Shown one piece after another: positions 1-17,049 of a stretch of DNA of 64,000 nt. Each line of letters opens with the position of its first letter. Positions within the stretch are counted from its first letter, which is position 1. Source of the stretch: Escherichia phage vB_Eco4M-7; the sequence record MN176217. The stretch is one strand, 5' to 3'. The translations under genes and the position numbers were made by a program. The notes under the pieces were generated by a model, which saw only the letters and a list, made by a program, of their open reading frames with translations, had not been told where the DNA came from and made no database searches.

Positions 1-34
1 GACGCTGATCAGACTTTAATTCAATGGGTAAGGT

Positions 35-1025: not shown

Positions 1026-1030
1026 ATATC

Positions 1031-1063: not shown

Positions 1064-1078
1064 ATCAATACTTATACT
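1050..1078 (+). promoter_or_regulatory. sigma70-like promoter TTGCCT-N17-TATACT
   Basis: -35 TTGCCT 1050-1055 (inside 3' arm of the hairpin), -10 TATACT 1073-1078, upstream of ORF 1111. Confidence 0.45.
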
Positions 1079-1110
1079 CTTTTCATCAAGACGAACAAGT
1101 GAGGTGAATT

Positions 1111-1428
1111 ATGATTTACTTAGGCATCGACAAGGAACAAGACGAGCGGTTAGGAAGCGTGTTAAACGTAGACTTGAACACAGCTGTACACATTAAGCCT
1201 TGGCCAGAGGCGCACCCCGACGTAGTTGTACCCGTTGCGCCTTGGACGCGTTACGTGGCCATTGACGATGACGGTCTTGTTCATTGTTATTCAGAAAAAC
1301 CGACATACTTCGAAAAGTATCGCCAATGGCTCATGACTGGATGGGCAAAGGTGCGCTGTTGCGGCGAAGTCGGTCTGGAAGGCTGGAGCTTCGAGGCTAG
1401 TGAATCGTTTGTCGAGGTGCAATTATGA
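1111..1428 (+). CDS. hypothetical early protein
   Basis: ORF track 105 aa; RBS GTGAGGTG upstream. Confidence 0.55.
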   Translation: MIYLGIDKEQDERLGSVLNVDLNTAVHIKPWPEAHPDVVVPVAPWTRYVAIDDDGLVHCYSEKPTYFEKYRQWLMTGWAKVRCCGEVGLEGWSFEASESFVEVQL

Positions 1429-1643
1429 ATGCCGCGCTGGGTAAGTTGTCATTCAACAAGCGTAACGAGCTGCGCATGGTGTCGCGCTTCCAGTTTGTAT
1501 TGAACTCGATGTCGAATCTTGCCATCACGATGCTTCGCGCTGATTGCCCTGCTGAAAAGCGTGAGACTTTATTTGAACGTCACAACCAATTACGAAAGGC
1601 TGCTTATAAGCTGCAGCAATATGCTATGGAGTATGCAAAATGA
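1425..1643 (+). CDS. hypothetical early protein
   Basis: ORF track 72 aa; ATGA overlap with upstream gene. Confidence 0.5.
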   Translation: MNAALGKLSFNKRNELRMVSRFQFVLNSMSNLAITMLRADCPAEKRETLFERHNQLRKAAYKLQQYAMEYAK

Positions 1644-2023
1644 GAATGAAGCGTTGCCCTTACTGCCACGATGTAATGCACCTTCCACACAAAGAGTTTG
1701 TGCAGCACATGACTAACTGTGATAAGAATCCTAAGAGCGAAAGCCAACTTGAAGAAAGAATGTTCTTGGTGTCATTCAAAGCTTCTGCTTATGAAGTGCA
1801 ACGTTCTTACGGCGCACCAAGTACGATTTACTGCCCAACAACATTGAGAAGTGACATTGACTCAATTCAGCTTGCGGCCTGGATTAACGTTAAGGAAGGA
1901 ATCACGCCGCACTTTATTGCACGCATCCAATCTCAGATTCTACAAATCAAGCGCGAATACAACCGTGACATCACTGAAGTGAAGGTGTTGTCTATCACAC
2001 CGATGAATAAGGAGTTGCCGTGA
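1640..2023 (+). CDS. hypothetical protein with N-terminal CxxC...H...C zinc-ribbon-like motif
   Basis: ORF track 127 aa; MRMKRCPYCHDVMHLPHKEFVQHMTNCD. Confidence 0.5.
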   Translation: MRMKRCPYCHDVMHLPHKEFVQHMTNCDKNPKSESQLEERMFLVSFKASAYEVQRSYGAPSTIYCPTTLRSDIDSIQLAAWINVKEGITPHFIARIQSQILQIKREYNRDITEVKVLSITPMNKELP

Positions 2024-2280
2024 ACAAGGGTCCGATGACTAAGTTAGCCGTTGCCGCGCGGAAGCTTCGACAAGCCGTTAATGGGTCGCGGCCCGTGGTG
2101 TTAACACTCGACGACGCAAAGGCACTGGTAGAGCTACTCGACGAGCACAACCGACGCAAGAATCTGGAGAACACATTACGCTGGCGCGTTACTCCGAAAG
2201 GGCGGGAGAGCGAAAAGAAAGCTTACTTGCGGCGTAAACTAAGGTCGGTCGGCCTTCACGAAGAGGCGAAGAATATTTAA
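2020..2280 (+). CDS. hypothetical basic protein
   Basis: GTG start 6 nt after AGGAG; overlaps upstream stop; 86 aa. Confidence 0.45.
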   Translation: MNKGPMTKLAVAARKLRQAVNGSRPVVLTLDDAKALVELLDEHNRRKNLENTLRWRVTPKGRESEKKAYLRRKLRSVGLHEEAKNI

Positions 2281-2286
2281 TTCAAA

Positions 2287-2316
2287 AAGGTGAGCTAAAT
2301 GCTTGCCTTTTTATTT
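2287..2316 (+). terminator. rho-independent terminator-like hairpin (copy 2)
   Basis: Exact repeat of the 1031-1058 hairpin, followed by T run. Confidence 0.5.
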
Positions 2317-2330
2317 GCCTGTATTATACT
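2303..2330 (+). promoter_or_regulatory. sigma70-like promoter TTGCCT-N16-TATACT
   Basis: -35 TTGCCT 2303-2308, -10 TATACT 2325-2330; RBS AAGGAG at 2344. Confidence 0.45.
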
Positions 2331-2352
2331 TAGTTCATCAAGCAAAGGAGAA

Positions 2353-2661
2353 ATGAGTATGAGTTACGACGAAAGGTTTGGCAGAAGCGGATTATTTCAT
2401 GACGCTGTACACAAAGACAGCAAAGATGTTGTCTGCGCATTCAAGGTTGATTCTTACGGTACACTGAAACCTTTTAAGGTCGGCGAAACATACAAGCTGT
2501 TTCACGGCTGGTTGACGCGTCGCAACAACTTGCCTGACATGGAAGTCTGGTGGATAGAATACAAGGGTCAGGCTCATCGTTGCAAGGTTGTAGAGGTGCG
2601 CGGCGTGGAATACTATCAATCTGTTATCAGCGGCTTTGTTTTTAAAGAGGGTGAGCTATGA
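2353..2661 (+). CDS. hypothetical protein (FKVG-x-TY paralog family)
   Basis: ORF track frame 2299..2661 trimmed to ATG after AAGGAG; shares FKVGETYKLF motif with ORF 3646..3987. Confidence 0.5.
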   Translation: MSMSYDERFGRSGLFHDAVHKDSKDVVCAFKVDSYGTLKPFKVGETYKLFHGWLTRRNNLPDMEVWWIEYKGQAHRCKVVEVRGVEYYQSVISGFVFKEGEL

Positions 2662-2978
2662 GTACCGAAGCGATGAAGAAAAAGATTTTGAACGCTTTGC
2701 AAGAAGCCGTGAACTGTGGTGCAATTAAAGAGTTCAAGGAGACGCAAGAAGGCGGTGAGCCAGTATTCTTCTTTAAGAATAAAAAGGACGGTGTTGCAGC
2801 AATCATGCTATTAAAGAATAGCGATGACACATTTGTTCTTTGCGTCGGCGGGTATGACCTTGTTGCAGACGATATATTCATAACCTGTGCTGGCAGCCTT
2901 GACACTGTTCTGACTTTTTCGCGTCGCGACATCCGTGTTGCAACGTTCGGAGGGAAATATTATGACATCCAACCTTAA
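2658..2978 (+). CDS. hypothetical protein
   Basis: ORF track 106 aa; ATGA overlap. Confidence 0.5.
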   Translation: MSTEAMKKKILNALQEAVNCGAIKEFKETQEGGEPVFFFKNKKDGVAAIMLLKNSDDTFVLCVGGYDLVADDIFITCAGSLDTVLTFSRRDIRVATFGGKYYDIQP

Positions 2979-3126
2979 AGCCCGTTTGTTATTCATCAAG
3001 CTGCATGTGCCATATAAGATTAGTAAGCGCACCTGGCTTAACATTTACAACCGCGGCGGCGACCGTTGTTTGTACAAGGCAAAGCGGCGCAAGAAGGTAT
3101 ATTCTTACACAACATCAATCAAATAA
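2962..3126 (+). CDS. small basic hypothetical protein
   Basis: ATG at 2962 after GGAGGG; in frame with ORF track 2935..3126. Confidence 0.3.
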   Translation: MTSNLKARLLFIKLHVPYKISKRTWLNIYNRGGDRCLYKAKRRKKVYSYTTSIK

Positions 3127-3142
3127 ATAGGATAAGACAACA

Positions 3143-3646
3143 ATGAAAATCGAACAACTCGAAGCAGTATTGGAAATGGCTGTGAAGGCAGGCGCAATCA
3201 GAAGCTATAGCCGCGAGAAGTCGGATGACGCTGCGCACTTTTGTCGCAACTTCTATATTGTCGGCAACCTTAACGACCACTACACCATCGAGTGGTATAC
3301 TAATATGATGACGCTTAAGTCGCGCACCATGGAGCTTTGGTGCGATGACATCTGCTTATCCAACACCCATCCATCCTACGACGTTGCGTTGGCATTCTAT
3401 TACGGAAGCCGTCAACCTGTCGCCCACATCGGTGAGAAGCATGAGCATCTTAAGGCGCGACCAGAGGAATCAATGGAAGGTTGGATTGAATGGGCTGGCG
3501 GCAAGAATCCGGTGCCTGGTAAGAAGGTCATGTTGATGTGGAGGAATGAAGAGAAGTCTTCTTATTCATCCAATTCAGAAGGATGGCTATGGCAGCACAA
3601 CGGAAGCGTTTATGACATCATTGCTTATCGCGTCGTGGAGGAATAA
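3143..3646 (+). CDS. hypothetical protein (shares C-terminal NPVPG...AYRVV domain with 4790..5221)
   Basis: ORF track 167 aa; C-terminus GGKNPVPGKKVMLMWRN...YDIIAYRVVEE. Confidence 0.55.
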   Translation: MKIEQLEAVLEMAVKAGAIRSYSREKSDDAAHFCRNFYIVGNLNDHYTIEWYTNMMTLKSRTMELWCDDICLSNTHPSYDVALAFYYGSRQPVAHIGEKHEHLKARPEESMEGWIEWAGGKNPVPGKKVMLMWRNEEKSSYSSNSEGWLWQHNGSVYDIIAYRVVEE

Positions 3647-3987
3647 TGGAAGAGCAAGAAGGCCGTGAGCTCACGTTCGACGAGCAGATGCAAGAGCTTC
3701 AGCGCACATCGCCGCTGCGCGGTAAGGTTGTTGACATCGAGGCGAGCGAATCCAATCTCACCCAGTGGCGACTCAAGTGCACCAGCACAAGCAAGGATAT
3801 GTTAAGCTTCAAAGTCGGTCAAACCTATTTGCTTTATGAGGCAAAAGGACTTATTATTGATGGAAGGCAAATTGTCTTCACAGTAGTCAGCGGAATGCGT
3901 TGGTTCGTGAAGCGTGATGTCGAGGGCCGTGACATGTTTGTCGCAGGCTTTCCAGAAGCAAGATTCCAATTGGAGAAGGTTAAATGA
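3646..3987 (+). CDS. hypothetical protein (FKVG-x-TY paralog family)
   Basis: ORF track 113 aa; SFKVGQTYLLYEAKG. Confidence 0.5.
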   Translation: MEEQEGRELTFDEQMQELQRTSPLRGKVVDIEASESNLTQWRLKCTSTSKDMLSFKVGQTYLLYEAKGLIIDGRQIVFTVVSGMRWFVKRDVEGRDMFVAGFPEARFQLEKVK

Positions 3988-4316
3988 AATTGAAATGGTA
4001 TGTGGACCCTGAGCCGACAGGCTCATACAGGTCATTCCAACGTCGCGGCTGGCCGATTTGTTACAGCGGCAATCCCGATAAAGAAGACTGCGAGATGATC
4101 GCCGCGATAGTAAGTCTTAACCATGACGGCTATGAAGGCCACTATGCGAGAGCAACCAACCTTCGGCTCAAGGTGCGCATCCATTTCAAGGTCGCAGGCG
4201 AGGACCGCACCGGACTCTCTAAGGAAGAGTTCAGCAGCATTGCCGAAGCAAAGGCATGGCTCAAGGCATTCTATAAGAACAACCCTAAATTCTATCCAAC
4301 TAAGGACGCATCATGA
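3984..4316 (+). CDS. hypothetical protein
   Basis: ORF track 110 aa; ATGA overlap. Confidence 0.5.
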   Translation: MKLKWYVDPEPTGSYRSFQRRGWPICYSGNPDKEDCEMIAAIVSLNHDGYEGHYARATNLRLKVRIHFKVAGEDRTGLSKEEFSSIAEAKAWLKAFYKNNPKFYPTKDAS

Positions 4317-4501
4317 CTAATAAAACACAGCTCATCAATTTTGAAGGCAAAGAATACGAAATAGACGCTCGTGCGCGATTCGTTGCGCGCGATTCTAACG
4401 GAACCATCTGGGCGTATGAGGGTAAACCTGCATGGAACGATTGGCGCGGCCAGTGGGGGATATGCAATTGGCGATTCACTTTGGTGCAAGCAAATTGGTG
4501 A
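4313..4501 (+). CDS. hypothetical protein
   Basis: ORF track 62 aa; Trp-rich. Confidence 0.4.
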   Translation: MTNKTQLINFEGKEYEIDARARFVARDSNGTIWAYEGKPAWNDWRGQWGICNWRFTLVQANW

Positions 4502-4508
4502 TGGAAAG

Positions 4509-4805
4509 ATGTTCGAAGAGAACAGACCAGCATCACGTGATTCATTAAAGGAAGTGGCAGAAATCAAAATCCAAGACCAAGCGCCATCGACCGATAACCA
4601 ATATGCAGTCGGGCAACGTGACATCGAGCAACTCGACGAGGGCGGCTATTATACGCGCCACATCTATGCCATGACGCATGAAGGACTTTACAGCAAGTCA
4701 GACATCGCCGCTGAACTGGCCCATCGTGACTTGCAAATTGACCTTCTCAAGATAGAAGTGCAAAACTTACGCAACACCCTTTTGAATACTTGGAGCTTAA
4801 AATGA
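4509..4805 (+). CDS. hypothetical protein
   Basis: ATG at 4509 just after upstream stop at 4501, in frame with ORF track 4371..4805. Confidence 0.45.
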   Translation: MFEENRPASRDSLKEVAEIKIQDQAPSTDNQYAVGQRDIEQLDEGGYYTRHIYAMTHEGLYSKSDIAAELAHRDLQIDLLKIEVQNLRNTLLNTWSLK

Positions 4806-5221
4806 CGCAACGTTATGATGTTGATTATTGCACGCAGCACGCTTGCACCTGCGAAGTTGTAAAGGATGATGAAGGCGGCTACGTTGAATATGAGGACTAC
4901 GCCGCGCTGGAAGCGAAATACAGTGAAGCGCAACGCGAGTTGGTTGCATTACGCTCACAGGTCCGTGATGCGTCGGTGCTCGTTAAGCAGTTGCATGACG
5001 TTGTTGCTACTATAGGCGTGGATGATGCGCCGAAGGAGGAAGCGTGGACCGTTTGGGAATCCAACGCAACCAATCCCGTCCCAGGACGTATGGTGATGTA
5101 TATGTTGCGCGACGGCTATGAATCTAAATCACCTGTGCTTTCCGATGGGTTGCGTTGGGAGATGATGGGACTGCCACACGGAACGGACATCGTCGCTTAT
5201 CGGGTTGTTAAGGAGGGGTGA
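4790..5221 (+). CDS. hypothetical protein (paralogous C-terminal domain to 3143..3646)
   Basis: ORF track 143 aa; alternative ATG at 4802; C-terminus NPVPGRMVMYMLRD...DIVAYRVVKEG. Confidence 0.55.
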   Translation: MELKMTQRYDVDYCTQHACTCEVVKDDEGGYVEYEDYAALEAKYSEAQRELVALRSQVRDASVLVKQLHDVVATIGVDDAPKEEAWTVWESNATNPVPGRMVMYMLRDGYESKSPVLSDGLRWEMMGLPHGTDIVAYRVVKEG

Positions 5222-5754
5222 TGGGTAACGATGCAGGATGGGGCAAGCCGCGATACTCAAAACTTGCCCACTACTTTGACGACGGCGAGCAAATCAGCTT
5301 GTGCGGTAAATTCAGCAAAGGCAATACAGAGTTGACCGACGCTCAAGAAATGGAATCAAGTTTAACAATTGGTGATTGTTCTAAATGTCGCAAGGCATTA
5401 TATGAGTTATTAACTCTAAGGGGATTGGAAGCGGCAAAATCAAGGGATGAATGGGTCATTAACGTCTGTGAAGGGAATCCAGAATTAATGGATGAATGGC
5501 TAAAGACGGATGCTGTTAATGCCATTTTCAAAAGGCATTATAAAACTTGTATGCGTTACAAGATGAATGATGATATTATTTTTATGGTATTATCTTATTC
5601 AAGGAGCACAATGGACGTCAAAAAGCTTCGACAATATCGCCACAAGGTAATGTGTGAATTACGCCGTTTAGGAGTGATTGTGGATAATAATGTTATTAAA
5701 ACGGAGTTAAAGAAGCGTGATAAAAGGAATGGTGACTGGAAGGTCAGCGGATAA
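5218..5754 (+). CDS. hypothetical Cys-containing protein; last gene of early operon
   Basis: ORF track 178 aa; 3' third is AT-rich with an internal AAGGAG-ATG at 5612. Confidence 0.4.
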   Translation: MMGNDAGWGKPRYSKLAHYFDDGEQISLCGKFSKGNTELTDAQEMESSLTIGDCSKCRKALYELLTLRGLEAAKSRDEWVINVCEGNPELMDEWLKTDAVNAIFKRHYKTCMRYKMNDDIIFMVLSYSRSTMDVKKLRQYRHKVMCELRRLGVIVDNNVIKTELKKRDKRNGDWKVSG

Positions 5755-6180
5755 AGAACATTGATTCGTGTGTTTTGAAGAATGGAATGTGTACAATTGG
5801 TCGCTTTACGCGGCCTTTTTGTCGTTTGGGTCGTGTTTTGTGATAGAATAATTATGACGAGGTGTTTTATTTATTAATTGTGCGGAAATATTTAGAAATA
5901 TATACAAACAGGATTGTTAATATTTTAATAGTGTATGGCTATTGGTCCGTGGTGTTTGTTAGATTCTATCTATGGATTGGATTTTCTTGGGTCGTGGAAC
6001 GTGGTTTTGAACACATTTGATACGCCTAAAATACGGTTAAAAATTAAGCGTATCATGGCTGCAGGCCGCGCCGTTCCTGGATTCCTATTTTCAAAAGTGG
6101 TACACCCTTACGTCATGATACGTCATGGTTTTCTATCCGTAAGAGTGTACAGCCCTTGCCGCGCCTGGCTTGTACATTAA

Positions 6181-6326
6181 TCTTACGGATGATACGGATA
6201 AAACTGAGCATCGTTATATATAGAATTCGAAAAATTAATTAACTCCATTTTAAAAACATTTATATTAATTTTTTTCATATCCTCATACTTATGTTAATTT
6301 ATATATTTAACGTATCATCCGTAAGA
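6181..6326. repeat. inverted-repeat element A: TCTTACGGATGATACG arms flanking ~110 bp AT-rich core
   Basis: 6181-6199 TCTTACGGATGATACGGAT; 6311-6326 is its reverse complement; extra ATACG boxes at 6018, 6112, 6355-6378. Confidence 0.8.
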
Positions 6327-6606
6327 TATAAGTAAAAACAAAGACTTGCGGCAATACGGATGATACGTCATGATACGCTTCAACCAGCCAGCAGCGGCTA
6401 AGTCATTGATTTGCATAACAAGCGGCGAAAGGGATGGATTTCTTTTATACGTATCAAACAGTACACCACGCACCACGGTCCGCAATCCTATTTGCACTAT
6501 GATTTGTGTACGTTTATAGCCATAATGAACATCAATCTGCACTTGAATATAATGTCCATCCATTGTATAATTCACACTATTAATTTGCACTATGGGATTT
6601 TGCACT

Positions 6607-7080
6607 ATGAGTCAAGATTATGTAGCGATGCCTGAAGACTTTGAAGACCCGCGATTCGCAGAGCACAATCAGGCTTTATTCGATGAGTTCATTGACCTTG
6701 TTATTCAGGGCCATGACATGCGCGCAGCTTTTGCACTAGTATTTGGAATGGAAGTTGCAACGGATAACTACACTGGCCAGCGAATCCTTTGCACGCAACG
6801 CAATCCATACTACAAGATGCGCTTCAAAAAGCGTATGGAAGAGATGCCACTCAAGGATTTGTGGAGCGTAAAAGGTGCAATTCACAATTTGGTCAAGCTT
6901 GTGCGTGATCCAGAAGTCGCAGCGTCAGCCAAGCTTAATGCTATTCGTGAACTGAATATCATCTACGACATCACGATGATTGATGAAAACGGCAACAGCA
7001 AGATGGGCCGTTCCATGGACGATTTCTACAAGGATTTTGGAGAGGCGGCCAAAGAAGGCGAGCAATTCTCCCGCCACTAG
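6607..7080 (+). CDS. putative HTH DNA-binding protein, possibly terminase small subunit-like
   Basis: ATG at 6607 overlaps the third TTTGCACTAT motif; N-terminal FDEFIDLVIQGHDMRAAFALVFG resembles small-terminase HTH (recalled pattern, not searched). Confidence 0.35.
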   Translation: MSQDYVAMPEDFEDPRFAEHNQALFDEFIDLVIQGHDMRAAFALVFGMEVATDNYTGQRILCTQRNPYYKMRFKKRMEEMPLKDLWSVKGAIHNLVKLVRDPEVAASAKLNAIRELNIIYDITMIDENGNSKMGRSMDDFYKDFGEAAKEGEQFSRH

Positions 7081-7099
7081 CCAATTTGCACTATAAAAC

Positions 7100-7133
7100 G
7101 GCCCTAGAACACATTGTCTCCAATTCTAGGGCC
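7100..7133. other. 10-bp perfect stem-loop GGCCCTAGAA/TTCTAGGGCC
   Basis: Inverted repeat just after the stop of 6607..7080; no obvious U-tract. Confidence 0.5.
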
Positions 7134-7508
7134 ATCGGTAATACGACGGGGAAGGTTGCAACCGTAAACGCGTTAGAAAGTGTATTATTATAAGTCATCT
7201 TTTAGTCACCTTACGTAACAATTTACGACCTTCAACCGTCCAATCGAACGACTCCACCAGCAGATTCGCACTATAACCTAAGACCACTCGACCCTTCTCG
7301 TTATCGACCCGCCAGCAAGTCTCGAATAGCATTCGATTTGCACTATTAACTATTGCTGCGACTCGCGTAGGATAAGCGCAATTTGCACTATGGTCGTAAA
7401 GGGATAAGGTGCGACCACTTCCGATGGACAACGTAGCGATGAGAATGAGCGTATTCATAAGCCACCAATTTGCACTATGAAAAGCGACCCCGAAGGGCCG
7501 CCATTCGA

Positions 7509-8135
7509 TTAGATAATCTGGAAGGTGTAGGACTTGTTGCCGAACTCGAAGTTCAAGCGTCCAGCTTCTTTAAGCTTCATGCGGAAGCGAATATGCTTGC
7601 TATCCGGCAAGCCCAGCGCGGCGAACGCTACGCGGACCGATTTGAACTCGCCTACACCCTCGACCATAACGCCGTTACGGGTGAGACGCTTTTGCGCCAC
7701 TTCTTTATTATCCCAACTTTTTGCAATACCTTTGCTATTCGAACGGCGATGGGAAGGAATTGCAATTTTATTCGCTCCAACCGGAGCATCATTAAGGCCG
7801 CTTTTAACGAAGGCTTCATATTCTTCGTCGGTCATCGCGTCGAGTTCTTCCTGGGTCGGCTCGGCCTTTTTAACGACCGCGCGCGCCTTATGCGTTTTTA
7901 CATCACTGGACACTTCCTCGCGAGACTTTGCGTCTGGGATGGGCGATTCGTTGGACGGATCATCGAGCGCGTTTAAGGATTCGATTAACGCGATTACGCG
8001 AGTCTCAGCGGTGCGACGGTCCGCGAATTTTTTAATCGGCTTTGAGCCTGAATTTTCGTTATAGAATGCAACGAGGTCGGCGGTCTTGGTTGCGATTACG
8101 TCGCCGCTGGTGGAGAAACGATTCAAACTGGCCAT
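7509..8135 (-). CDS. hypothetical protein
   Basis: ORF track 208 aa; strong RBS AGGAG 8 nt upstream of ATG; protein-like composition unlike the overlapping plus-strand ORF. Confidence 0.6.
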   Translation of the reverse strand: MASLNRFSTSGDVIATKTADLVAFYNENSGSKPIKKFADRRTAETRVIALIESLNALDDPSNESPIPDAKSREEVSSDVKTHKARAVVKKAEPTQEELDAMTDEEYEAFVKSGLNDAPVGANKIAIPSHRRSNSKGIAKSWDNKEVAQKRLTRNGVMVEGVGEFKSVRVAFAALGLPDSKHIRFRMKLKEAGRLNFEFGNKSYTFQII

Positions 8136-8180
8136 AATAAACTCCTAGTTTGGGAGCGGTGTCAACGACCTATTCGTTAA

Positions 8181-8243
8181 CTCATCCGTCCCGATATGAG
8201 TACATTATAATATAGTGTAGAAAAAAAGTAAAGCACTTTTTCG
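8181..8243 (-). promoter_or_regulatory. promoter-like element (minus-strand copy)
   Basis: Reverse complement reads CGAAAAAGTGCTTTAC...TACACT...TATAAT, near-identical to the 8664 element. Confidence 0.5.
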
Positions 8244-8275
8244 ATAAAAATGAGATAAATTATTTTATCTTTTTT

Positions 8276-8318
8276 CTTTACTTCTTCGTACACTCGCGTA
8301 TACTTGTTTATATCGAGA
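8276..8318 (+). promoter_or_regulatory. promoter-like element (copy 2)
   Basis: CTTTACTTCTTCGTACACT (exact 19-mer shared with 8674) + TATACT 8299-8304 + GTTTATATCGAGA. Confidence 0.5.
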
Positions 8319-8360
8319 CGGGCGATGGCCCTTCCTTCTAATAGCATCGGGAGTTTTATT

Positions 8361-8663
8361 ATGACCACTTTAATCTCTTCTATCCTTACTTACGACGAAG
8401 ACCGTTTAACCGTTCGCTCTCTTATCGCCGCCGTTAACGCGGAACTAGAATCCACCATTATTAAGGTCCGCGCGGTCGCTTTCGTCGGCCTTTCCTTCGA
8501 CGATATTAAGTACGCCGAACGTAGCGTCATCCGCTTCGCGAAGACCGATGACGAAGCCGTTACCCTTATCGAGACGGTTACGCCGCGCGGCGAAGCGTTA
8601 ATTATCGTCGAGTATATCGACGTAGAAGGCGATAAGGCTTATAAATATTTTATCGCAAAATAA
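8361..8663 (+). CDS. hypothetical protein
   Basis: ORF track frame 8304..8663, start moved to ATG 8361 after GGGAG; CpG-rich codon choice. Confidence 0.5.
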   Translation: MTTLISSILTYDEDRLTVRSLIAAVNAELESTIIKVRAVAFVGLSFDDIKYAERSVIRFAKTDDEAVTLIETVTPRGEALIIVEYIDVEGDKAYKYFIAK

Positions 8664-8717
8664 CGAAAAAGTGCTTTACTTCTTCGTACACTAAGACTAT
8701 AATGTTTTATATCGAGA
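8664..8717 (+). promoter_or_regulatory. promoter-like element (copy 3)
   Basis: CGAAAAAGTGCTTTACTTCTTCGTACACT, TATAAT 8698-8703, GTTTTATATCGAGA. Confidence 0.5.
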
Positions 8718-8770
8718 GGGGATGAGGTAGCGAATAGGTCGCTACCCTCCCGACTAACTAGGAGAATATT

Positions 8771-9061
8771 ATGATTACTTTAGCCGCTATCCGCGACGCT
8801 CGCGTCGAGACTTCCGAAAATTCCAACGTATTTGGCGAAAAGCTTAAAAACGTCTATCTTTTTAACGTAGACGCAACTATCGAGCCTATTTATGAGCCGA
8901 TCAACTTCCTCGACCTTTACAAGTATCGCGACGAGGACATCGTATCATCCCGCGTAACGATCAACGGCTTCGTCTATACGATTACCGAAATCGGCGGCGA
9001 ATATCTCGCGGTCCCGCAACTCGGCGGCGAAGTAACTTTCTTTAAAATCGTAAGCCTGTAA
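8771..9061 (+). CDS. hypothetical protein
   Basis: ORF track 96 aa; RBS AGGAGAA upstream. Confidence 0.55.
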   Translation: MITLAAIRDARVETSENSNVFGEKLKNVYLFNVDATIEPIYEPINFLDLYKYRDEDIVSSRVTINGFVYTITEIGGEYLAVPQLGGEVTFFKIVSL

Positions 9062-9072
9062 GGAGAAGGAAG

Positions 9073-9282
9073 ATGACTAATATGAATAATTCTCTTAACG
9101 CGCGCGCCCATCGCACCGCCGTAATCGATATGTTCCGCGAGCTTAAGGAATTATGCGATAATATGAACGCGATGTTATCCATCGGCGGCTGGGGATACGA
9201 AGAAGAGGTTAAATACGCGGTTATGCGTCGCCGTCGCGATAACGTCCTTGGACAAATTAAACGCGCCGGATTATTCCTTTAA
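9073..9282 (+). CDS. hypothetical protein
   Basis: ORF track 69 aa; RBS GGAGAAGGAAG upstream. Confidence 0.5.
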   Translation: MTNMNNSLNARAHRTAVIDMFRELKELCDNMNAMLSIGGWGYEEEVKYAVMRRRRDNVLGQIKRAGLFL

Positions 9283-9307
9283 TTATAATTACCCACCGTT
9301 ACTAATA

Positions 9308-9333
9308 GGCCGCGCTTAGTCGCGGCTTTTCTT
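9308..9333 (+). terminator. rho-independent terminator
   Basis: GCCGCG-CTTAGT-CGCGGC hairpin followed by TTTTCTT. Confidence 0.6.
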
Positions 9334-9453
9334 CGTCCCTATCTCGATGCGCTTCTCCGCGAAAACTCCTTTATCCTTCCCTTCGTCGTCGCATAATCTT
9401 CGTCGAGATGCGCCTTAGTTCGCATAACAGGTATTACGTTAAATGGAGAACAT

Positions 9454-9526
9454 CGCGTAAGTCGTTGTTTTATATAGACACATATATCGGACCGTTAGGG
9501 CGGGTCGCGTAAGTCGTTGTTTTATA
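9454..9526 (+). repeat. direct repeat of 21-mer CGCGTAAGTCGTTGTTTTATA (two copies)
   Basis: Copies at 9454-9474 and 9506-9526. Confidence 0.8.
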
Positions 9527-9987
9527 AAGGCGCAAAACTTTCCCTTCGTTCCGAACTAAAACGAGAAATATGCCGACCCTTCGCCCGAAAATAGTACGCA
9601 TGCGAAATTACATGCATCTCGAATAATCCCCACCGATACTATCCTACACGCAATCATTCGCTTTCGAATCATTATGCTTCATATTATCATGCGTCGAATC
9701 ATTCGCTTTCGAATTGTAACGCTGGAAACTGTAACGGCGATTGATTATTGCGTTCGTGTGGTTTTTATGGCATGGGTCTTTTGGTGCGTTTTGCTACTTG
9801 ATGGAATTTGCGGTACACTAATCAAAATACGACACATTTGGTCCACTAACTTTTCAAAGAAAAAGTCCTAGACAGTACCGTACTATTTTGTACCCACAGG
9901 AAATTTGCAGTACACTCCTGCGCAGCAGGCAAAATAAAGGGCCGCACTAAGCGACCCACGATTCACGGTTAAAGCAACATCCACCCA

Positions 9988-11117: not shown

Positions 11118-11216
11118 TTATGCCGCAGCAGCGTGGATGATTGCGTAAACGATTCCAAACAGGGCGACAACACAAACCGTGCCCCAAAATGCAAAGCGTC
11201 GTGCCTCTTTATCCAT
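11118..11216 (-). CDS. small hydrophobic protein (32 aa, single predicted TM helix)
   Basis: Hand-translated MDKEARRFAFWGTVCVVALFGIVYAIIHAAAA; RBS GGAGAAGGG 6 nt upstream; below ORF-track size cutoff. Confidence 0.4.
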   Translation of the reverse strand: MDKEARRFAFWGTVCVVALFGIVYAIIHAAAA

Positions 11217-11496
11217 TAGACCCTTCTCCGCTGTTAATGTTGTCTAGAATCAAGGTTGGAATTTCATCTTGAGTTCTGACTTTGTAATGCGAAGGCATTT
11301 TGCTTTCTAACAATGCCTGTTCGGCTTCTCCCTTTGTCTCAAAGAGCGGGATGCACCAATCAACTGCATCGCCATGTTCATCGCCTGTAACGGCTTTCAA
11401 AAAGACAAGGCGTTTGTCTGCAGGGTCGATTCCGCAAATTAAGTATTTTGGAAGAGCCTTTGCTTTCTGAGCCTTATCAATATCTTCAAATTTCAT
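11209..11496 (-). CDS. hypothetical protein
   Basis: ORF track frame 11209..11508, start at ATG 11496 (MKFEDID) with GAGGTG RBS. Confidence 0.5.
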   Translation of the reverse strand: MKFEDIDKAQKAKALPKYLICGIDPADKRLVFLKAVTGDEHGDAVDWCIPLFETKGEAEQALLESKMPSHYKVRTQDEIPTLILDNINSGEGSNG

Positions 11497-11577
11497 AAAA
11501 CACCTCACTTGTTAACGTATAATGAGTATAACTTAATTGCGCATAAAGTAAAGGCGCTTTTCAGCGCCTTGAGTGAA

Positions 11578-13917
11578 TTATTTTGCTGCTTTCAGCGCGG
11601 CTATCTCTGCCTCGAGAACCTCGATGCGGTCCATCAATGCAAGAATAGCCTCGTGGTGCAGTGCTGCTGCTACGCCTGGTGTGTTGACAGATTTTATGTT
11701 ATCCAACGTCGAACCGTCGCGCAGAGTAACAGGCGATGACTGTGTTTCAGATACTGCTTCAGGAAAGTCTTTCTCTACATCCTGGGCGATGAAGCCAAAA
11801 CCGACGGAGCCATTAGTTTCCAGAGTCCATGCCACGCCTCTAATATTGCGCATCTTGACGAGTGGATCAGTGATCCGCTCAATGTTACTTTTAATACGTT
11901 CATCAGATATACTCCGCCACTCCTGACACCTTGCTATTCCATCGGAGCCAAAAAGATAAGAGGCCGCGCCGCCTGTCCCGCTGTAAACGTTCAATTGAGC
12001 GCGGTCCAGCGCGGTCGTGCTACTCCTTATGCCTCCGAGAATCCAGCTTCCGCTGTACCAGTCACCGCTGATTGAGTTTACAAAATTTCCTTCTGGAACG
12101 TTGGCATAGTTTTGAATCCTTATGGCGTTGTTTTCTGCAGCAGCAACGCCTACTGAATTAACTGGGGATGCAACAAGGTCTTTAGACCGGATATATGCAT
12201 CAACAAATATTGTTCCATCAGGGCGCAGAGTTCCAATCTGGGATGTGGAATTTGGCAACACCAATTTGCCATCTTGGTTAAATGCCCACTCTTGCACCCC
12301 ATTAGATATCACCGCACCTTGTTCAGATGTTAATCCATCAATCTTGCCGTATGCCTGCAAGAATGCTTGATACGCGATGTTCGTGCCAATCTTATATTCA
12401 GATTTTACACTACCGCCTCTGACAAGCGTTCCGGTTGCAGGTTTTACTGCGTCACCATTAATGACGCTCCAAGTCGTATTCGCGGCAACAAATCCACCAG
12501 ATGCACGAATCACCCAAACACCTTCAAAGGCATTAGGTCGAATTTCATTCGCATCATCACGTCCATAAGCGCCATTTGACAGCGATGCATCAAAGTTCAC
12601 GTCTACATAATAACCATCAGAAGTCCCGCGCATACTTCCAGCAGTTTTTACTATTTTTGGCTCAAATGCGCCATATCCTCGCGTCACGCCAGAGGTGCCG
12701 AATGCAGTAAGCATAGACACATTAGGTGAACCAGAAATATTTGGTGCAGCACTCTGCCTGACACGACCGTCGTTTGAAGATACACCTCCATCACCACGCC
12801 CGAATAAACCTGGGATTGAGCCTGCTTGAACGCCGTTGCGGTCTGGAACTCGAAATGTAGTTGTGCCGTTGCCTAATGAATACTTGCCGCGTTTCGCTGG
12901 GTCCGCTAACCAATCTGCATCAGCAATAGGCGAAAGCATTTGCGCATATGCCCAAAGTTCAGGCCAATCTGCACGATTGAGTAATTGGCCGTCAGAAACG
13001 ACTTCGTAAGGCTGGATGTAAGCACGACTGTCTCGCAAGTGGAAGTCGCCGACGCCATAGTTCATAACACCGTTCATGCTTGGGCCAACGGTGCCTGTGT
13101 TCACTAAGTTCTCAACCCAACGCTTGGTTGCAGCATCATAATCGTTTACCGGATCACCAGCAAGCGGAGTCGGCCCTTGTGGACGAATATTCAACCAAGC
13201 TTGAGCATTGTCTGCTGATCCTGTGCCGCCCATTGAAGTTGGAACGATGCTTTGATCAGCGACTTGTCCGAATCCAAAAGCAGACTTCATCCCCTGTATG
13301 GTAGTTTGACCTGTGCCGCCATTTGCGACTGGTATAACGCTTTGCGTGTTATAAACTTGAACCCAATCAGACCAGGATGATATATCGACGCTATACAACC
13401 TTTGGTATACTGTGTTTATCCAGTAAGGCGTGTATCTCTGCACACAGCTGTTCGTTGAAACTCCCGTTTGTAAAACTTCAAGTATTCCAGCTTGTTCTAC
13501 AGGATAGTTGAGTGCTGTTGACGCCCCAGCATTAGTCGGTTGGTAATATTGACCGAACCAGCTTCCGTTCAGCGCGTTAAGGTTTATGCCATTAGGAATT
13601 ACGCCAAAGTTTCGGACAGTACCCGTCAAAGTCGCGGCAGTAGTTCGAATGGAAAGCATATCACCAGCCGCCCAAGCACGCGCTGCAGTACCTTCCTGTG
13701 CACGCTGCACGGTCAGGACGTTTCCAACAACGGCTGTTACTGTGACGATTTCGAATTGGAGGCCTGTTGCGGCGTCAACGATTGTCGCCACTACACGCTC
13801 GTTTGCGCCCAAGGTCGGAAAGCCCGACCCTGAGCGAATTGTGATTGTGGTGTCTGAAGTCGTCGTTGGCTGAGCGAGCGCGACCTCAAAGTTGTTTTTG
13901 AATATTAGCCTTGGCAT
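11578..13917 (-). CDS. tail fibre/spike protein with C-terminal intramolecular chaperone (peptidase S74-like) domain
   Basis: 779 aa; Gly/Thr/Asn-rich fibre-like body; C-terminal SDERIKSNIERI...ALMDRIEVLEAEIAALKAAK resembles the autoproteolytic chaperone domain of phage fibres. Confidence 0.7.
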   Translation of the reverse strand: MPRLIFKNNFEVALAQPTTTSDTTITIRSGSGFPTLGANERVVATIVDAATGLQFEIVTVTAVVGNVLTVQRAQEGTAARAWAAGDMLSIRTTAATLTGTVRNFGVIPNGINLNALNGSWFGQYYQPTNAGASTALNYPVEQAGILEVLQTGVSTNSCVQRYTPYWINTVYQRLYSVDISSWSDWVQVYNTQSVIPVANGGTGQTTIQGMKSAFGFGQVADQSIVPTSMGGTGSADNAQAWLNIRPQGPTPLAGDPVNDYDAATKRWVENLVNTGTVGPSMNGVMNYGVGDFHLRDSRAYIQPYEVVSDGQLLNRADWPELWAYAQMLSPIADADWLADPAKRGKYSLGNGTTTFRVPDRNGVQAGSIPGLFGRGDGGVSSNDGRVRQSAAPNISGSPNVSMLTAFGTSGVTRGYGAFEPKIVKTAGSMRGTSDGYYVDVNFDASLSNGAYGRDDANEIRPNAFEGVWVIRASGGFVAANTTWSVINGDAVKPATGTLVRGGSVKSEYKIGTNIAYQAFLQAYGKIDGLTSEQGAVISNGVQEWAFNQDGKLVLPNSTSQIGTLRPDGTIFVDAYIRSKDLVASPVNSVGVAAAENNAIRIQNYANVPEGNFVNSISGDWYSGSWILGGIRSSTTALDRAQLNVYSGTGGAASYLFGSDGIARCQEWRSISDERIKSNIERITDPLVKMRNIRGVAWTLETNGSVGFGFIAQDVEKDFPEAVSETQSSPVTLRDGSTLDNIKSVNTPGVAAALHHEAILALMDRIEVLEAEIAALKAAK

Positions 13918-13955: not shown

Positions 13956-14297
13956 TTAATTTCTTTTGAGAGGAATATGACGGTTGCTGTCATTATTTGG
14001 TTTAATAATGAGCATAAAAACGATTAGAAAGATGATGGCTGATATACTTAATTCAATCAGCGCGGCTTGAGATATGGATTGATCTTCATGATACTGCTTT
14101 TGCATTTCCGCTTTCTTTTGAGCGCAAACTTCAGGTGATATATAATCGCCTTTTGAGTTGCCATAATAAATCTCGCCATTCTCAGAAATAAGCCTGCCGC
14201 AAATATCCGTTTCAGCCTTTGCACTTGACATCATAATAACGGTGCCAATGATAGCAGCGATTGTCCAGATTAGCAGTTGTGATAAAGTGTTGTTCAT
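13956..14297 (-). CDS. membrane protein (N-terminal signal/TM and C-terminal TM)
   Basis: ORF track 113 aa; hydrophobic segments at both ends. Confidence 0.5.
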   Translation of the reverse strand: MNNTLSQLLIWTIAAIIGTVIMMSSAKAETDICGRLISENGEIYYGNSKGDYISPEVCAQKKAEMQKQYHEDQSISQAALIELSISAIIFLIVFMLIIKPNNDSNRHIPLKRN

Positions 14298-14744: not shown

Positions 14745-14937
14745 ATGTGCTGCCGCTTGTTTCTCTGTTTAGCAGGTATCTGCCGCGCATCCCATGAAGG
14801 CTGAACTCAACCGTCGATGGATTAGATTTTGAAAGCCATATAGGTTGCCCGTCGAATGGACCGCCTACGCATGTATATTTCGCTTTTGGCTCACTCCTTT
14901 TGGGCCGTTTTGCCCGCTCTTTGATTGATAGTCTCAT
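14716..14937 (-). CDS. hypothetical basic protein
   Basis: ORF track 73 aa. Confidence 0.4.
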   Translation of the reverse strand: MRLSIKERAKRPKRSEPKAKYTCVGGPFDGQPIWLSKSNPSTVEFSLHGMRGRYLLNRETSGSTFVEWKENGK

Positions 14938-15152
14938 CAGTCTTCACCTTGAGATTCCAGACAAGTAAGGACAAGCCACGTCATCGGAAGAATCAAAACC
15001 AGAGAAATGAGGGACCAGATAGACCAGCACAAGATGACAGACTTGAATGTGTGAACGTCGCCAAACACAGCAGTAAAACAGAATCCCATTACAAACGCAA
15101 TAGCTGTGGAATGGTTGTCTATGGCTTTGATGGCACGGTCGATGAGTTTCAT
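14937..15152 (-). CDS. small membrane protein (two hydrophobic helices)
   Basis: ORF track 71 aa; AIAFVMGFCFTAVF and LISLVLILPMTWLVL. Confidence 0.45.
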   Translation of the reverse strand: MKLIDRAIKAIDNHSTAIAFVMGFCFTAVFGDVHTFKSVILCWSIWSLISLVLILPMTWLVLTCLESQGED

Positions 15153-15240: not shown

Positions 15241-15471
15241 TCAGTGTGAAGACACAATTAGTGTGCCACTTCCCTTTGCGAAAATTTCAACTCCTGGCGG
15301 GATTTCGATTGTGCCGTTAACAGCAATGCCGATCAGCTTGTCATCGGCCTTTTCCTCAAAACAAATTTCAGCAGCGCCGCCGCGAACTTGAATGAGTGCG
15401 CCGGATACGTTTTCGGCAACGGAAATAACGGAAGTATAAGAGGGAGTGAGTTGAATGTTGACTAGGGCCAT
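15241..15471 (-). CDS. small hypothetical protein, possibly cupin-like beta-barrel
   Basis: ORF track 76 aa; Gly-rich pattern loosely reminiscent of small cupins. Confidence 0.35.
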   Translation of the reverse strand: MALVNIQLTPSYTSVISVAENVSGALIQVRGGAAEICFEEKADDKLIGIAVNGTIEIPPGVEIFAKGSGTLIVSSH

Positions 15472-15485: not shown

Positions 15486-15512
15486 AAAAAAATGGCCAGA
15501 AAGAATCTGGCC
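15486..15512 (-). terminator. terminator-like hairpin with U-tract on minus strand
   Basis: GGCCAG/CTGGCC stem; A7 run at 15486-15492 on plus strand. Confidence 0.4.
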
Positions 15513-15588
15513 GAAAGATCACCCTTTATCCACTACTAAGCTGGAATCATAATTTTACTTGATATAGCTTGTACAAGCAAACTATAAT

Positions 15589-17049
15589 ATGAATAAAATA
15601 TTAACACATAATTGGAAATTCATGTACCAGTTGAATCCTGCTTTAAAAGAAGTCTGGAAGACAAAAGCGCGATACAAAGTAATATACGGCGGTCGTGCAT
15701 CTTCCAAATCGCACGATGCCGCTGGTTTTGCTATTTATTTGGCGGCAAACTTCAAATTAAAATTCCTTTGCGTTCGACAATTCCAGAACAAGATTTCTGA
15801 ATCTGTATATACTCTATTAAAAGACAAAATAGAGATTTCTGATTTCAAAGATGAGTTCAATTTATTAAAGAACTCTATTGAACATAAAAGAACTAAATCT
15901 GAATTTCTATTTTACGGTATCGCACGTAACGTTGATGAAATTAAATCAACAGAAGGTGTTGACGTCCTTTGGTTGGAAGAAGCGCACGCGCTTACTGAAG
16001 AACAGTGGGACATTATTGAGCCGACAATCCGTAAAGAAGGGTCCGAAATATGGATCATCTTTAACCCTGATGAAGAGGCCGATTTCGTCTACCAAAACTT
16101 TGTTATGCGACCGCCGAAGAATGCCATTGTTAAAAAGATAAACTGGCAAGATAATCCATTCTTGTCGCAAACAATGCTGGACGTTATCGCAGGTATGTAC
16201 GAGCGTGACCCGAAAAAGGCAGAGCACGTTTATGGCGGTGTGCCGAAGACTGGCGGCGACAAATCTGTAATCAACCGCGCATTCGTTAAGGCCGCGCTAA
16301 ATCTCCACAAACACCCTATGCTGGGGTGGAGTTTGTCAGGGTCTAACCGTATAGGCTTTGACGTAGCGGACGATGGCGACGACCTTAACGCCACTGCATT
16401 CGTCACAGGAAACGTATTGCGCGGCATCAAGACGTGGGAAGGTCTGGAAGATGAATTGTTGAAATCGGCAAGCGGAGTTTGGAAAGATGCGCTTACATTT
16501 GGCGCTTCTATAACTTATGACGCCATCGGTGTCGGCGCTTTTGCTGGTTCAAAATTTGATGAACTGAACGAGTATGCAATACATGAAAATCCATCATTTC
16601 CAAGAATCGAATTTAATGCGTTCAATGCGCAAGGGTCTGTTGATGATCCTGATGACGTTTTTCTTGAATTACCACACGTTGAAATACTCAATAAAGACCA
16701 TTTCGCAAACATAAAAGCGCAAAAGTGGACTGAAATTGCAGAGAGATTCAGAAAGACATACGAATATGCAACTGGGCAAGCCGTATATCCGACTGATGAA
16801 TTGATTTCAATCGACACCGATGGTATACCGGAACTTGGGATTCCAGCTTGGACCACTGAAGAGATTGAGACGTTTCTTTTTGAGATGTCAGCGCCGCGCA
16901 AAGATACGTCTGTTCTTGGCAAGTTCAAAGTTGAATCCAAAAAGGATATGGCAAAGCGTGGAGTTAAATCACCTAACAAAGCGGACGCAGCAATCATGGC
17001 ATTGATGAAACCAATCGTTGCAGCATCCGGCTTCTTCTCTAACCTTTAA
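15589..17049 (+). CDS. terL: terminase large subunit
   Basis: 486 aa; Walker A YGGRASSKSH near N-terminus; start may be ATG 15622 because a TATAAT box abuts 15589. Confidence 0.8.
   Translation: MNKILTHNWKFMYQLNPALKEVWKTKARYKVIYGGRASSKSHDAAGFAIYLAANFKLKFLCVRQFQNKISESVYTLLKDKIEISDFKDEFNLLKNSIEHKRTKSEFLFYGIARNVDEIKSTEGVDVLWLEEAHALTEEQWDIIEPTIRKEGSEIWIIFNPDEEADFVYQNFVMRPPKNAIVKKINWQDNPFLSQTMLDVIAGMYERDPKKAEHVYGGVPKTGGDKSVINRAFVKAALNLHKHPMLGWSLSGSNRIGFDVADDGDDLNATAFVTGNVLRGIKTWEGLEDELLKSASGVWKDALTFGASITYDAIGVGAFAGSKFDELNEYAIHENPSFPRIEFNAFNAQGSVDDPDDVFLELPHVEILNKDHFANIKAQKWTEIAERFRKTYEYATGQAVYPTDELISIDTDGIPELGIPAWTTEEIETFLFEMSAPRKDTSVLGKFKVESKKDMAKRGVKSPNKADAAIMALMKPIVAASGFFSNL

Follow-up and report, generated by a model that had tools for sequence, protein, structure and literature searches.

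The window analysed here is a stretch of 64,000 nucleotides from Escherichia phage vB_Eco4M-7 (sequence record MN176217), which belongs to the genus Wifcevirus. On its minus strand, an ORF of 779 aa (gp27) is present at 11578..13917, exactly as the initial annotation had stated. The features of this locus considered below are the following:

11578..13917, minus strand: gp27 ORF with ATG start, 779 aa; variable ('T-shaped') lateral tail fibre and receptor-binding protein of vB_Eco4M-7
13615..13917, minus strand: N-terminal anchor (aa 1-101), presumed to provide baseplate attachment
13222..13614, minus strand: aa 102-232, comprising a pyocin-type knob (~aa 102-190) and two GGTG linker repeats (aa 200 and 230)
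12385..13221, minus strand: RBD1 (aa 233-511), according to the literature a tail-collar or T4 gp12-like receptor-binding domain
12523..12765, minus strand: hypervariable loop within RBD1 (aa 385-465), a singleton allele
11905..12384, minus strand: RBD2 (aa 512-671), distal, similar to the T5 L-shaped-fibre tip according to the literature; allele associated with O157 hosts
11581..11904, minus strand: S74 intramolecular chaperone (IMC, aa 672-779), with predicted autocleavage after S671
11551..11570, minus strand: terminator-like hairpin 8 nt past the fibre stop, with an 8-bp G+C-rich stem followed by UUUACUUUAU
13956..14297, minus strand: gp28, predicted membrane protein of 113 aa with hydrophobic segments at aa 3-27 and 74-103
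14937..15152, minus strand: predicted membrane protein of 71 aa with two hydrophobic segments
11118..11216, minus strand: predicted membrane protein of 32 aa with one hydrophobic segment
15179..15206, minus strand: TTGCCT-16-TATAAT, which agrees with the sigma-70 consensus at 10 of 12 positions and is the best promoter-like sequence ahead of the fibre block; a consensus match only

The gp27 ORF is not a chance ORF, because it matches both PHROG 6921 ('tail fiber protein') over aa 23-779 (E = 3.4e-238) and Pfam PF13884 (Peptidase_S74) over aa 671-722 (E = 2e-11; score 44.4 bits, gathering cut-off 22). The latter match agrees with the C-terminal chaperone domain that had been predicted from the sequence. 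O157vBn_00011 of phage vB_Eco4M-7n (PP596836.1) has the same protein sequence (100% identity). It must be said that gp27 has already been published as a swappable, receptor-binding tail fibre governing the host range of vB_Eco4M-7, a phage of E. coli O157; the protein has been annotated, seen in proteomics and exploited in a HiBiT reporter phage for O157 detection, so that confirmation of this point adds little.

The initial annotation placed the gene outside the virion module. The main fibre and baseplate genes are indeed plus-strand genes, found at ~33.3-43.5 kb; they code for a lytic tail/tape-measure protein, the baseplate hub and wedge, a structural protein of 912 aa and a tail fibre of ~600 aa, and are followed by the endolysin gene. 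Taken literally the description holds, since gp27 is encoded ~28 kb from the baseplate genes; however, its block directly adjoins, and is divergent from, the large terminase gene that opens the structural module. Similarly, the small membrane proteins thought to follow the fibre do exist, three of them in the same minus-strand block, but two of the three lie upstream in the direction of transcription. One of these, gp28, ends 38 nt before the fibre start codon and is probably co-transcribed with gp27; nearly all relatives have a 342-nt ORF directly before the fibre gene (432 nt in SP13). No family match was found for gp28 in Pfam, PHROG or NCBIfam, nor any informative family for nine small neighbouring ORFs in Pfam and PHROG, and NCBIfam returned none for the fibre or its neighbours. 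Of the neighbours, which the initial annotation supposed to be early accessory genes, gp26 and gp32 have themselves been detected in phage preparations by published mass spectrometry (MS). Downstream, the hairpin at 11551..11570 (-13.6 kcal/mol, z = -3.1) matches the position of a terminator annotated in the WFC record. Upstream, the sigma-70 scans gave matches only marginally above those in shuffled sequence, from which expression timing is not assignable.

That gp27 belongs to the virion is indicated by the MS data of Necel et al., in which it was abundant and the top-scoring protein in CsCl-purified phage (34 peptides, 80% coverage), as the proteomic check proposed with the initial annotation had anticipated. 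The fibre scored highest for 4M-7 and for ECML-117 alike when gradient-purified phage was analysed. gp27 is therefore neither absent from phage preparations nor devoid of a chaperone-domain match, and these two observations support the earlier view of a second, separately encoded receptor-binding fibre ending in an S74 chaperone. In addition, vB_Eco4M-7 depends on the O157 O-antigen, according to published genetics (rfbE), and phage with a C-terminal tag on gp27 is viable.

Two different views of the protein were considered and rejected. The gene lies in an opposite-strand block of small uncharacterised ORFs, behind sigma-70-like promoter matches, and might accordingly encode an early accessory (moron) product that is non-structural, for example a decoy or a soluble adhesin. 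This is very improbable in view of the top score in gradient-purified 4M-7 and ECML-117 and of the genus-wide conservation of the N-terminal anchor module, and the TTGCCT/TATAAT promoter type also precedes the head protease gene. There is equally little chance that gp27 is an enzymatic tailspike (an endosialidase or another depolymerase) instead of a fibre, as might be thought because the SP13 orthologue is annotated as 'endo-N-acetylneuraminidase' and because, according to the Pfam description, endosialidases were the first proteins in which the S74 domain was recognised. Searches of Pfam, NCBIfam, PHROG and PDB sequences returned no glycosidase, beta-propeller (GH58) or beta-helix family, and the likeness to endosialidases is limited to the C-terminal chaperone, while the rest of gp27 matches fibre modules. 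With high confidence, we regard gp27 as the variable lateral tail fibre by which the host range of this Wifcevirus myophage is determined, probably acting by the mechanism proposed below.

The fibre is a five-part mosaic, composed of the N-terminal anchor, the pyocin-type knob, RBD1 with its hypervariable loop, RBD2 and the IMC, the last predicted to be self-cleaving. PDB sequence matches were obtained for the N-terminus (8jov), the knob (R2 pyocin), DT57C LtfA and the IMC structures. Among all Wifcevirus fibres the anchor is 94-100% identical, whereas the EP335, FFH1 and DT57C homologues lack it; by profile it matches residues 1-100 of the tail fibre of phage GP4, a virion-bound protein (8jov_1, E = 1.8e-15), and aa 1-101 presumably attach the fibre to the baseplate. 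No docking partner for this N-terminus was found in the literature on the GP4 fibre. The knob matches the R-type pyocin fibre knob in both sequence and fold. AlphaFold2 monomer models were confident only for the knob and the IMC, as expected of an intertwined trimer (full gp27: pLDDT 53, pTM 0.25).

In RBD1, gp27 shares 57-85% identity with the fibres of other phages, among them Wifcevirus, T5-like and phiEco32-like ones. In the literature, SSF88874 and an HHpred similarity to gp12 are assigned to gp27 orthologues; in our searches, 21 of the 31 relatives scanned had weak, below-threshold matches to Pfam Collar (the best with E = 0.0012), comparison of the family profile with T4 gp12 by hhalign was negative, and the PDB sequence search returned no gp12 match. 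The RBD1 part of the monomer model had a pLDDT below 50. For RBD2 and the IMC modelled alone, the pLDDT was 47.7, and the T5-like fold was not reproduced.

Every Wifcevirus examined has retained the fibre slot, divergent from TerL, together with the N-terminal anchor, so that this is an old genus-wide feature and not a recent gain by vB_Eco4M-7. The suggestion that the gene was horizontally acquired is consequently to be restricted: it finds support in the absence of the fibre gene from the sister genus Pbunavirus and in the behaviour of the distal cassette (~aa 378-765), which is exchanged with T5-like siphoviruses, ~60-kb siphoviruses and Gordonclarkvirinae podoviruses, but it does not extend to a recent acquisition of the whole gene. 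DNA homology breakpoints were located at ~aa 378 and ~aa 765, and it is at ~aa 378 that homology with other Wifceviruses breaks. Among 61 Wifcevirus-type fibres, 26 alleles of the RBD1 loop and 11 of RBD2 were found in 40 combinations. The gp27 loop stands alone in its allele cluster among these fibres, and it is only 21-50% identical to that of every other fibre compared.

As to the C-terminus, gp27 has the IMC fold with its long C-terminal helix, and profile matches in the PDB include 6f45 (6.8e-10) and 7dc3 (1.3e-8). PF13884 was matched by all 31 relatives scanned. The motif SDERIK starting at S671 fits the Ser-Lys dyad motif S-D-x-R-x-K, with the lysine five residues downstream; neither S671 nor K676 varies among 68 aligned homologues, and S671 aligns with Ser621 of EP335 gp13, which is cleaved experimentally. 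The fate of the chaperone is less straightforward, because the published MS peptides cover the supposedly discarded domain, whereas the tag data argue for its release. The CsCl-gradient preparation contains each of the six IMC tryptic peptides that are detectable; peptide coverage of the IMC is 83%, it accounts for 25% of the gp27 spectral counts (500 of 2012) with 14% of the length, and its median peptide area is similar to that of the mature part. A fibre that remains full length (82.7 kDa), or a cleaved IMC that stays bound on the virion, would account for these values. We nevertheless regard either as unlikely. The junction peptide SISDER is undetected in the published MS tables, though other 6-residue peptides were found, which is suggestive, not decisive; moreover, the preparation did not consist of pure mature virions, considering that the prohead protease ranked second and that traces of helicase and endolysin were present. 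The C-terminally HiBiT-tagged phage gave ~2e3 RLU as phage only and 7.6e7 RLU with host, the former being within the range of carry-over and below the value for a tagged DNA polymerase subunit. Retention also sits poorly with the invariance of S671 and K676 and with the cleavage of the EP335 gp13 IMC, 77% identical to that of gp27 (PMC8217332). With release of the IMC as the preferred reading, the HiBiT tag would sit on a chaperone predicted to be cut off, which would account for the low background of phage alone as well as for the strength of the signal, and suggests as a general design rule that a reporter tag be put on the IMC.

Which of the two receptor-binding domains recognises O157 is a matter on which the evidence points in two directions. 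Among 17 fibres compared, the gp27-type RBD2 is detectable only in ECML-117, Ro157lw, FEC19, RCIP0363, EC150, EP335 gp13 and FFH1, and it is common to O157 phages of four virion architectures. All six O157-host fibres compared (4M-7, ECML-117, Ro157lw, FEC19, EP335 gp13 and FFH1) share this type with 56-87% identity, whereas their RBD1 loops are only 18-48% identical. FEC19, an O157 phage, shares RBD1 with Bas99, which depends on O16 (loop 96% identical), but their RBD2 domains are unrelated (18%). The RBD2 allele therefore appears the better candidate for the O157-binding part of gp27, a preference that we hold with roughly balanced confidence, and its link to O157 is tentatively proposed as a correlation with isolation hosts only.

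Indeed, the authors of the BASEL study found the RBD2 phylogeny to be uncorrelated with host recognition and favoured RBD1 (PMC11990801). It is conceivable, if on balance rather doubtful, that RBD1 with its hypervariable loop binds O157, and that RBD2 serves, for example, as a binder of a second glycan or as a folding nucleus for the chaperone. In the Gordonclarkvirinae, RBD1 clusters correlate with host recognition and RBD2 phylogeny does not (PMC11990801); all four O16-dependent Wifceviruses have one RBD1-loop allele (at least 96% identity) and two unrelated RBD2 types, so that RBD1 can track the O-antigen; and the gp27-type RBD2 is also found in Bas89 (a K-12 isolate, O16) and SA126VB (O108:H2). 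Against this, four O157 Wifceviruses possess four RBD1-loop alleles (23-43% identity) and a single RBD2 type, the RBD1 of FEC19 is the same as in O16 phages, and the O157-binding EP335 gp13 is 67% identical to gp27 in RBD2 and only 23% in the RBD1 loop. The fact that the RBD2 allele tracks O157 hosts while the RBD1-loop allele tracks O16 dependence tentatively suggests two independent specificities per fibre. Each domain might then have its own, independently assorting glycan specificity, with RBD2 as the O157 module and the RBD1 loop providing a second, separate one; we put this forward as a possibility with the chances somewhat against it. If it were true, FEC19, which combines an O16-associated RBD1 loop with an O157-associated RBD2, would be a dual O16/O157 phage, and Wifcevirus fibres would offer a natural two-slot chassis for phage retargeting. 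As a smaller addition to the same idea, the 'discarded' chaperone may stay associated with the particles.

The mechanism that we propose for the lateral fibre is as follows. Three gp27 chains would trimerise, and the genus-conserved N-terminal ~100 residues would dock the fibre on the baseplate, for which a C-terminal extension of gp62 that is specific to Wifcevirus (~340 aa) is a candidate site. The pyocin-type knob and the short linkers would carry RBD1 and the distal RBD2 on one polypeptide. The IMC would template folding of the distal trimer and then cut itself off after Ser671 by means of the Ser671/Lys676 dyad, leaving a mature fibre of ~71 kDa. Binding to the O157 O-antigen chain would represent the first, specific attachment, and the conserved baseplate fibre encoded at ~41.7-43.5 kb of the window may act in later, invariant steps. 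Recombination among unrelated phage groups would swap the distal cassette and thereby change the host range.

According to Humolli et al. (PLoS Biol 2025, PMC11990801), the orthologues of gp27 are 'T-shaped' fibres that each bear two receptor-binding domains. The ManiWeber/Bas99 fibre is a direct orthologue and occupies the same slot, with a 113-aa ORF on one side, small downstream ORFs on the other, and divergent orientation from TerL. The two fibres have the same order of anchor, RBD1, RBD2 and IMC and are 97% identical in the anchor and 95% in the RBD1 core (aa 233-384), but they differ in the RBD1 loop (30%), in RBD2 (unrelated, 16%) and in the IMC (29%), as well as in the host O-antigen, which is O157 for vB_Eco4M-7 and O16 for Bas99. 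The knob of gp27 resembles those of R2-type pyocin fibres (PDB 6cl6 and 6ct8, by PDB sequence match). In pyocin fibres, however, the knobs are followed by a C-terminal foot, which binds LPS with the aid of a separate chaperone, whereas the far longer gp27 fibre has a single knob, close to its N-terminus. Related chaperone domains are those of the T5 pb1 L-shaped fibre tip with IMC, K1F endosialidase, GA-1 gp12 and MYRF ICA (PDB 4uw8, 3gw6, 3gud and 7dc3).

Fibres from other phage groups also resemble gp27. Besides RBD2 and the IMC, gp13 of the Gordonclarkvirinae podovirus EP335 resembles gp27 in RBD1 (57% as a whole, 60% in the core, aa 233-384), and both its binding to O157 cells and its self-cleavage after the serine equivalent to S671 are experimental (Witte et al. 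2021, PMC8217332); it is, however, without the Wifcevirus anchor or knob and is attached to the podovirus tail via the proximal fibre gp12. The T5-like branched L-shaped fibres DT57C LtfA/LtfB and FFH1 ORF131 are 66-67% identical to gp27 in RBD1, and FFH1 ORF131 also in RBD2 (70%) and IMC (88%), whereas the RBD2 of DT57C is unrelated. PDB 8hqz resolves only the N-terminus of LtfA, so that the part homologous to gp27 is without a structure there. The DT57C and FFH1 fibres attach by a T5-type N-terminus or to another fibre, but like gp27 they possess an S74 IMC, and they recognise the O-antigen with a host range that can be switched by distal recombination.

The 779-aa ORF at 11578..13917 on the minus strand was found exactly where the initial annotation had placed it. 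It is O157vBn_00011, that is, gp27 of vB_Eco4M-7 (4M-7): the 8 kb around it are matched at 100% identity by vB_Eco4M-7n (PP596836.1, genus Wifcevirus), whose record coordinates plus 7125 give window coordinates. The window is circularly permuted with respect to the GenBank record. The predicted protein matched PHROG 6921 'tail fiber protein' (E = 3.4e-238), and a domain search placed Pfam Peptidase_S74 at aa 671-722 (E = 2e-11, 44.4 bits against a cut-off of 22), so that the observation of a fibre carrying an S74-type intramolecular chaperone (IMC) is confirmed far above chance.

The initial reading was thus correct and the finding is real, although the fibre has already been described in three papers. 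It was named a tail fibre, variable between related phages, by Necel and colleagues (Necel et al., 2020; PMC7048862), in whose mass spectrometry of CsCl-purified phage gp27 was the top-scoring protein (34 peptides, 80% coverage), its ECML-117 orthologue being likewise found. Resistance to 4M-7 maps to LPS synthesis genes, and an rfbE mutant without the O157 antigen is not lysed; in the same study, a C-terminal HiBiT tag on gp27 was tolerated and gave the strongest reporter signal among 13 tagged phages from 20 attempted tag sites (Communications Biology 2024; PMC11074155). Finally, the paper completing the BASEL collection (PMC11990801) assigned two fibres to Wifcevirus phages, i.e. a conserved, T4 gp37-like one in the tail locus and a variable, 'T-shaped' one composed of an N-terminal anchor, a gp12-like receptor-binding domain (RBD1), a T5-like RBD2 and an intramolecular chaperone. 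What is added here is modest, namely a tentative allele-to-host pattern and a question about the fate of the chaperone.

As initially annotated, the tail and baseplate genes lie on the plus strand, here placed at about 33-43.5 kb, and gp27 sits on the minus strand in a block of genes (about 9.9-15.5 kb) that diverges from the large terminase (15622..17049). The following features belong to this block and its surroundings:

15241-15471, minus strand: gp32, 76 aa, divergent from the large terminase, no known family
11209-11496, minus strand: gp26, 95 aa, soluble and family-less, directly downstream of the fibre terminator, detected by mass spectrometry (62% coverage)
15494-15512, minus strand: terminator-like hairpin with a run of seven U (-15.9 kcal/mol, z = -3.3)
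9307-9328, plus strand, and 9939-9957, minus strand: convergent terminator-like hairpins

The order large terminase (divergent), small ORFs, ORF of about 113 aa, fibre, further small ORFs is common to 14/14 Wifcevirus relatives examined. The ORF preceding the fibre (143 aa in SP13) is a predicted membrane protein in 4M-7, where three small predicted membrane proteins are encoded. 3' of the fibre stop codon, a stable hairpin runs into a U-rich stretch, and a terminator is annotated there in the WFC record. The WFC record also has a terminator annotated where 4M-7 carries the hairpin at 15494-15512, which lies between a promoter-like site (15546-15575) and the gp32 start codon (15471), i.e. within the leader at the 5' end of the block's first gene. 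In Mansfield, the fibre block ends beside a predicted 3.7-kb direct terminal repeat; this repeat (PhageTerm-predicted, Mansfield 1-3673) aligns to about 5880-9555 of the window, its aligned end being about 430 bp from the end of the fibre block (9988).

The description of the neighbours as early accessory genes is unproven, because none has a known family, gp26 and gp32 are present in phage preparations by mass spectrometry, and the TTGCCT/TATAAT-type promoter match found 5' of both the fibre block and the head protease gene is a consensus match, not informative on timing. In CsCl preparations, gp32 was strong for 4M-7 (score 1002) and had a lower score for ECML-117, so that it may belong to the virion without having been recognised as such. 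The ORF 3' of the ECML-117 fibre was also detected by mass spectrometry, and gp26 could be a fibre-associated factor.

In PDB sequence and profile searches, the anchor (aa 1-101) resembled residues 1-100 of the virion-bound tail fibre of GP4 (8jov, E = 1.8e-15), the knob (aa 102-193) the R2-pyocin fibre knob (E about 1e-7), the part from aa 232 onwards LtfA of the T5-like phage DT57C (8hqz, where only the LtfA N-terminus is resolved), and the IMC those of S16 gp37 (6f45), the MYRF ICA domain (7dc3) and GA-1 (3gud). The comparison of T4 gp12 with the gp27 family profile by hhalign was negative, a Pfam Collar match was weak and sub-threshold in 21/31 relatives, and matches of the T5 tip to gp27 were marginal; neither the gp12-like nor the T5-like fold was reproduced here, and both therefore rest on the literature. 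S671, which begins an SDERIK motif, and K676 are invariant across 68 aligned homologues. S671 aligns with Ser621 of the podovirus fibre EP335 gp13, at which self-cleavage has been demonstrated by ESI-MS; a cut at S671 would be predicted to split gp27 into the mature fibre (about 71 kDa) and a piece of about 11.7 kDa. The orthologous fibre of SP13 (positions 3299-5608 of its record, L012) is labelled 'endo-N-acetylneuraminidase', probably a mis-annotation inherited via the common S74 chaperone domain.

Classical S74 chaperones are released once cleaved. For gp27 the published data conflict, IMC peptides being found in the phage preparation as against a low HiBiT signal on phage alone. In Supplementary Table S2 of the 2020 study (PMC7048862), every one of the six detectable tryptic peptides from aa 672-779 is listed; IMC coverage there is 83%, its 500 of 2012 spectral counts make up 25% of the counts for 14% of the gp27 length, and the median area of its peptides is close to that seen for the mature part. 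Table S2 does not contain the junction peptide SISDER, though other 6-residue peptides were recorded, and the CsCl preparation was not pure mature virions, since the prohead protease is its second-ranked protein. The HiBiT-tagged phage alone gave about 2e3 RLU over untagged phage, versus 7.6e7 RLU with host cells, and this phage-only signal was below that of a tagged non-structural DNA polymerase subunit (PMC11074155), which argues that the gp27 C-terminus is mostly absent from virions. Cleavage and release of the IMC appear the more likely outcome. Cleavage was not considered by the HiBiT authors, who assumed the tag to be on the exposed mature fibre (PMC11074155); a tag at the gp27 C-terminus is, however, on the IMC (11581-11904, minus strand), whose removal by cleavage is predicted. 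Release, if true, would explain both tag tolerance and low phage-only background.

The suggestion of horizontal acquisition holds at two levels, the whole fibre being missing in the sister genus Pbunavirus and its distal cassette being exchanged; however, the gene is old in the Wifcevirus lineage, its N-terminal module being 94-100% identical within Wifcevirus and not detectable in Pbunavirus. The first 32 kb of the pbunavirus PB1 contained no fibre homologue and only three small ORFs divergent from the terminase. Between Wifceviruses, DNA homology covers fibre aa 1 to about 378; in phages from other hosts it then disappears and resumes only at about aa 765. RBD1 is 57-85% identical across Wifcevirus, T5-like, phiEco32-like and other phages, and this RBD2 type occurs in myoviruses, T5-like siphoviruses, siphoviruses of about 60 kb and Gordonclarkvirinae podoviruses. 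The 61 Wifcevirus-type fibres combine 26 alleles of the RBD1 loop with 11 of RBD2 in 40 different ways. Module conservation, absence from Pbunavirus, DNA breakpoints and allele combinations together point to an old lineage addition with a distal cassette that is an exchange hot spot.

One baseplate protein also differs from its Pbunavirus counterpart:

38954-41692, plus strand: gp62, baseplate protein, 912 aa, N-terminal DUF2612

It aligns with PB1 gp45 (504 aa) over aa 1-573 only. Its C-terminal extension (about 340 aa, 40673-41689), which had no match in Pfam or PDB, is a Wifcevirus-specific addition; that it serves as docking site of the extra fibre is speculative.

Seventeen fibres were compared segment by segment, a small sample in which host labels are isolation hosts only. 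One RBD2 type (56-87% identity) was present in all the fibres from phages with a documented O157 host (4M-7, ECML-117, Ro157lw, FEC19, FFH1 and EP335 gp13, the last demonstrated to bind O157), while their RBD1 loops (aa 385-465) were only 18-48% identical. The four O16-dependent BASEL Wifceviruses (4/4) share a single RBD1-loop allele (at least 96% identity), whereas their RBD2 domains fall into two types that are unrelated to each other (12% identity). Outside this group, the loop allele has its nearest relative (63-65% identity) in the T5-like phage Bas32, whose fibres target O16. FEC19, isolated on O157:H7, joins the O16-associated loop to the O157-associated RBD2: its RBD1 (fibre at 2974-5310 of its record, L008), hypervariable loop included, is 96-99% identical to those of Bas99 (L009, 1448-3781) and Bas100 (L003, 5289-7622), whereas no relationship is seen between its RBD2 and those of Bas99 and Bas100 (12-18% identity). 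Judged from these alignments, the FEC19 fibre represents a domain swap made in nature, from which FEC19 is predicted to recognise both O16 and O157. Against a clean link with O157, the O157-associated RBD2 type is also carried by SA126VB (O108:H2) and by Bas89, whose isolation host was K-12 with O16. The allele pattern would tentatively fit two independent specificities per fibre. The BASEL authors left the roles of the two RBDs open, leaning to RBD1 (PMC11990801); the pattern described here, new and still tentative, goes further than their position.
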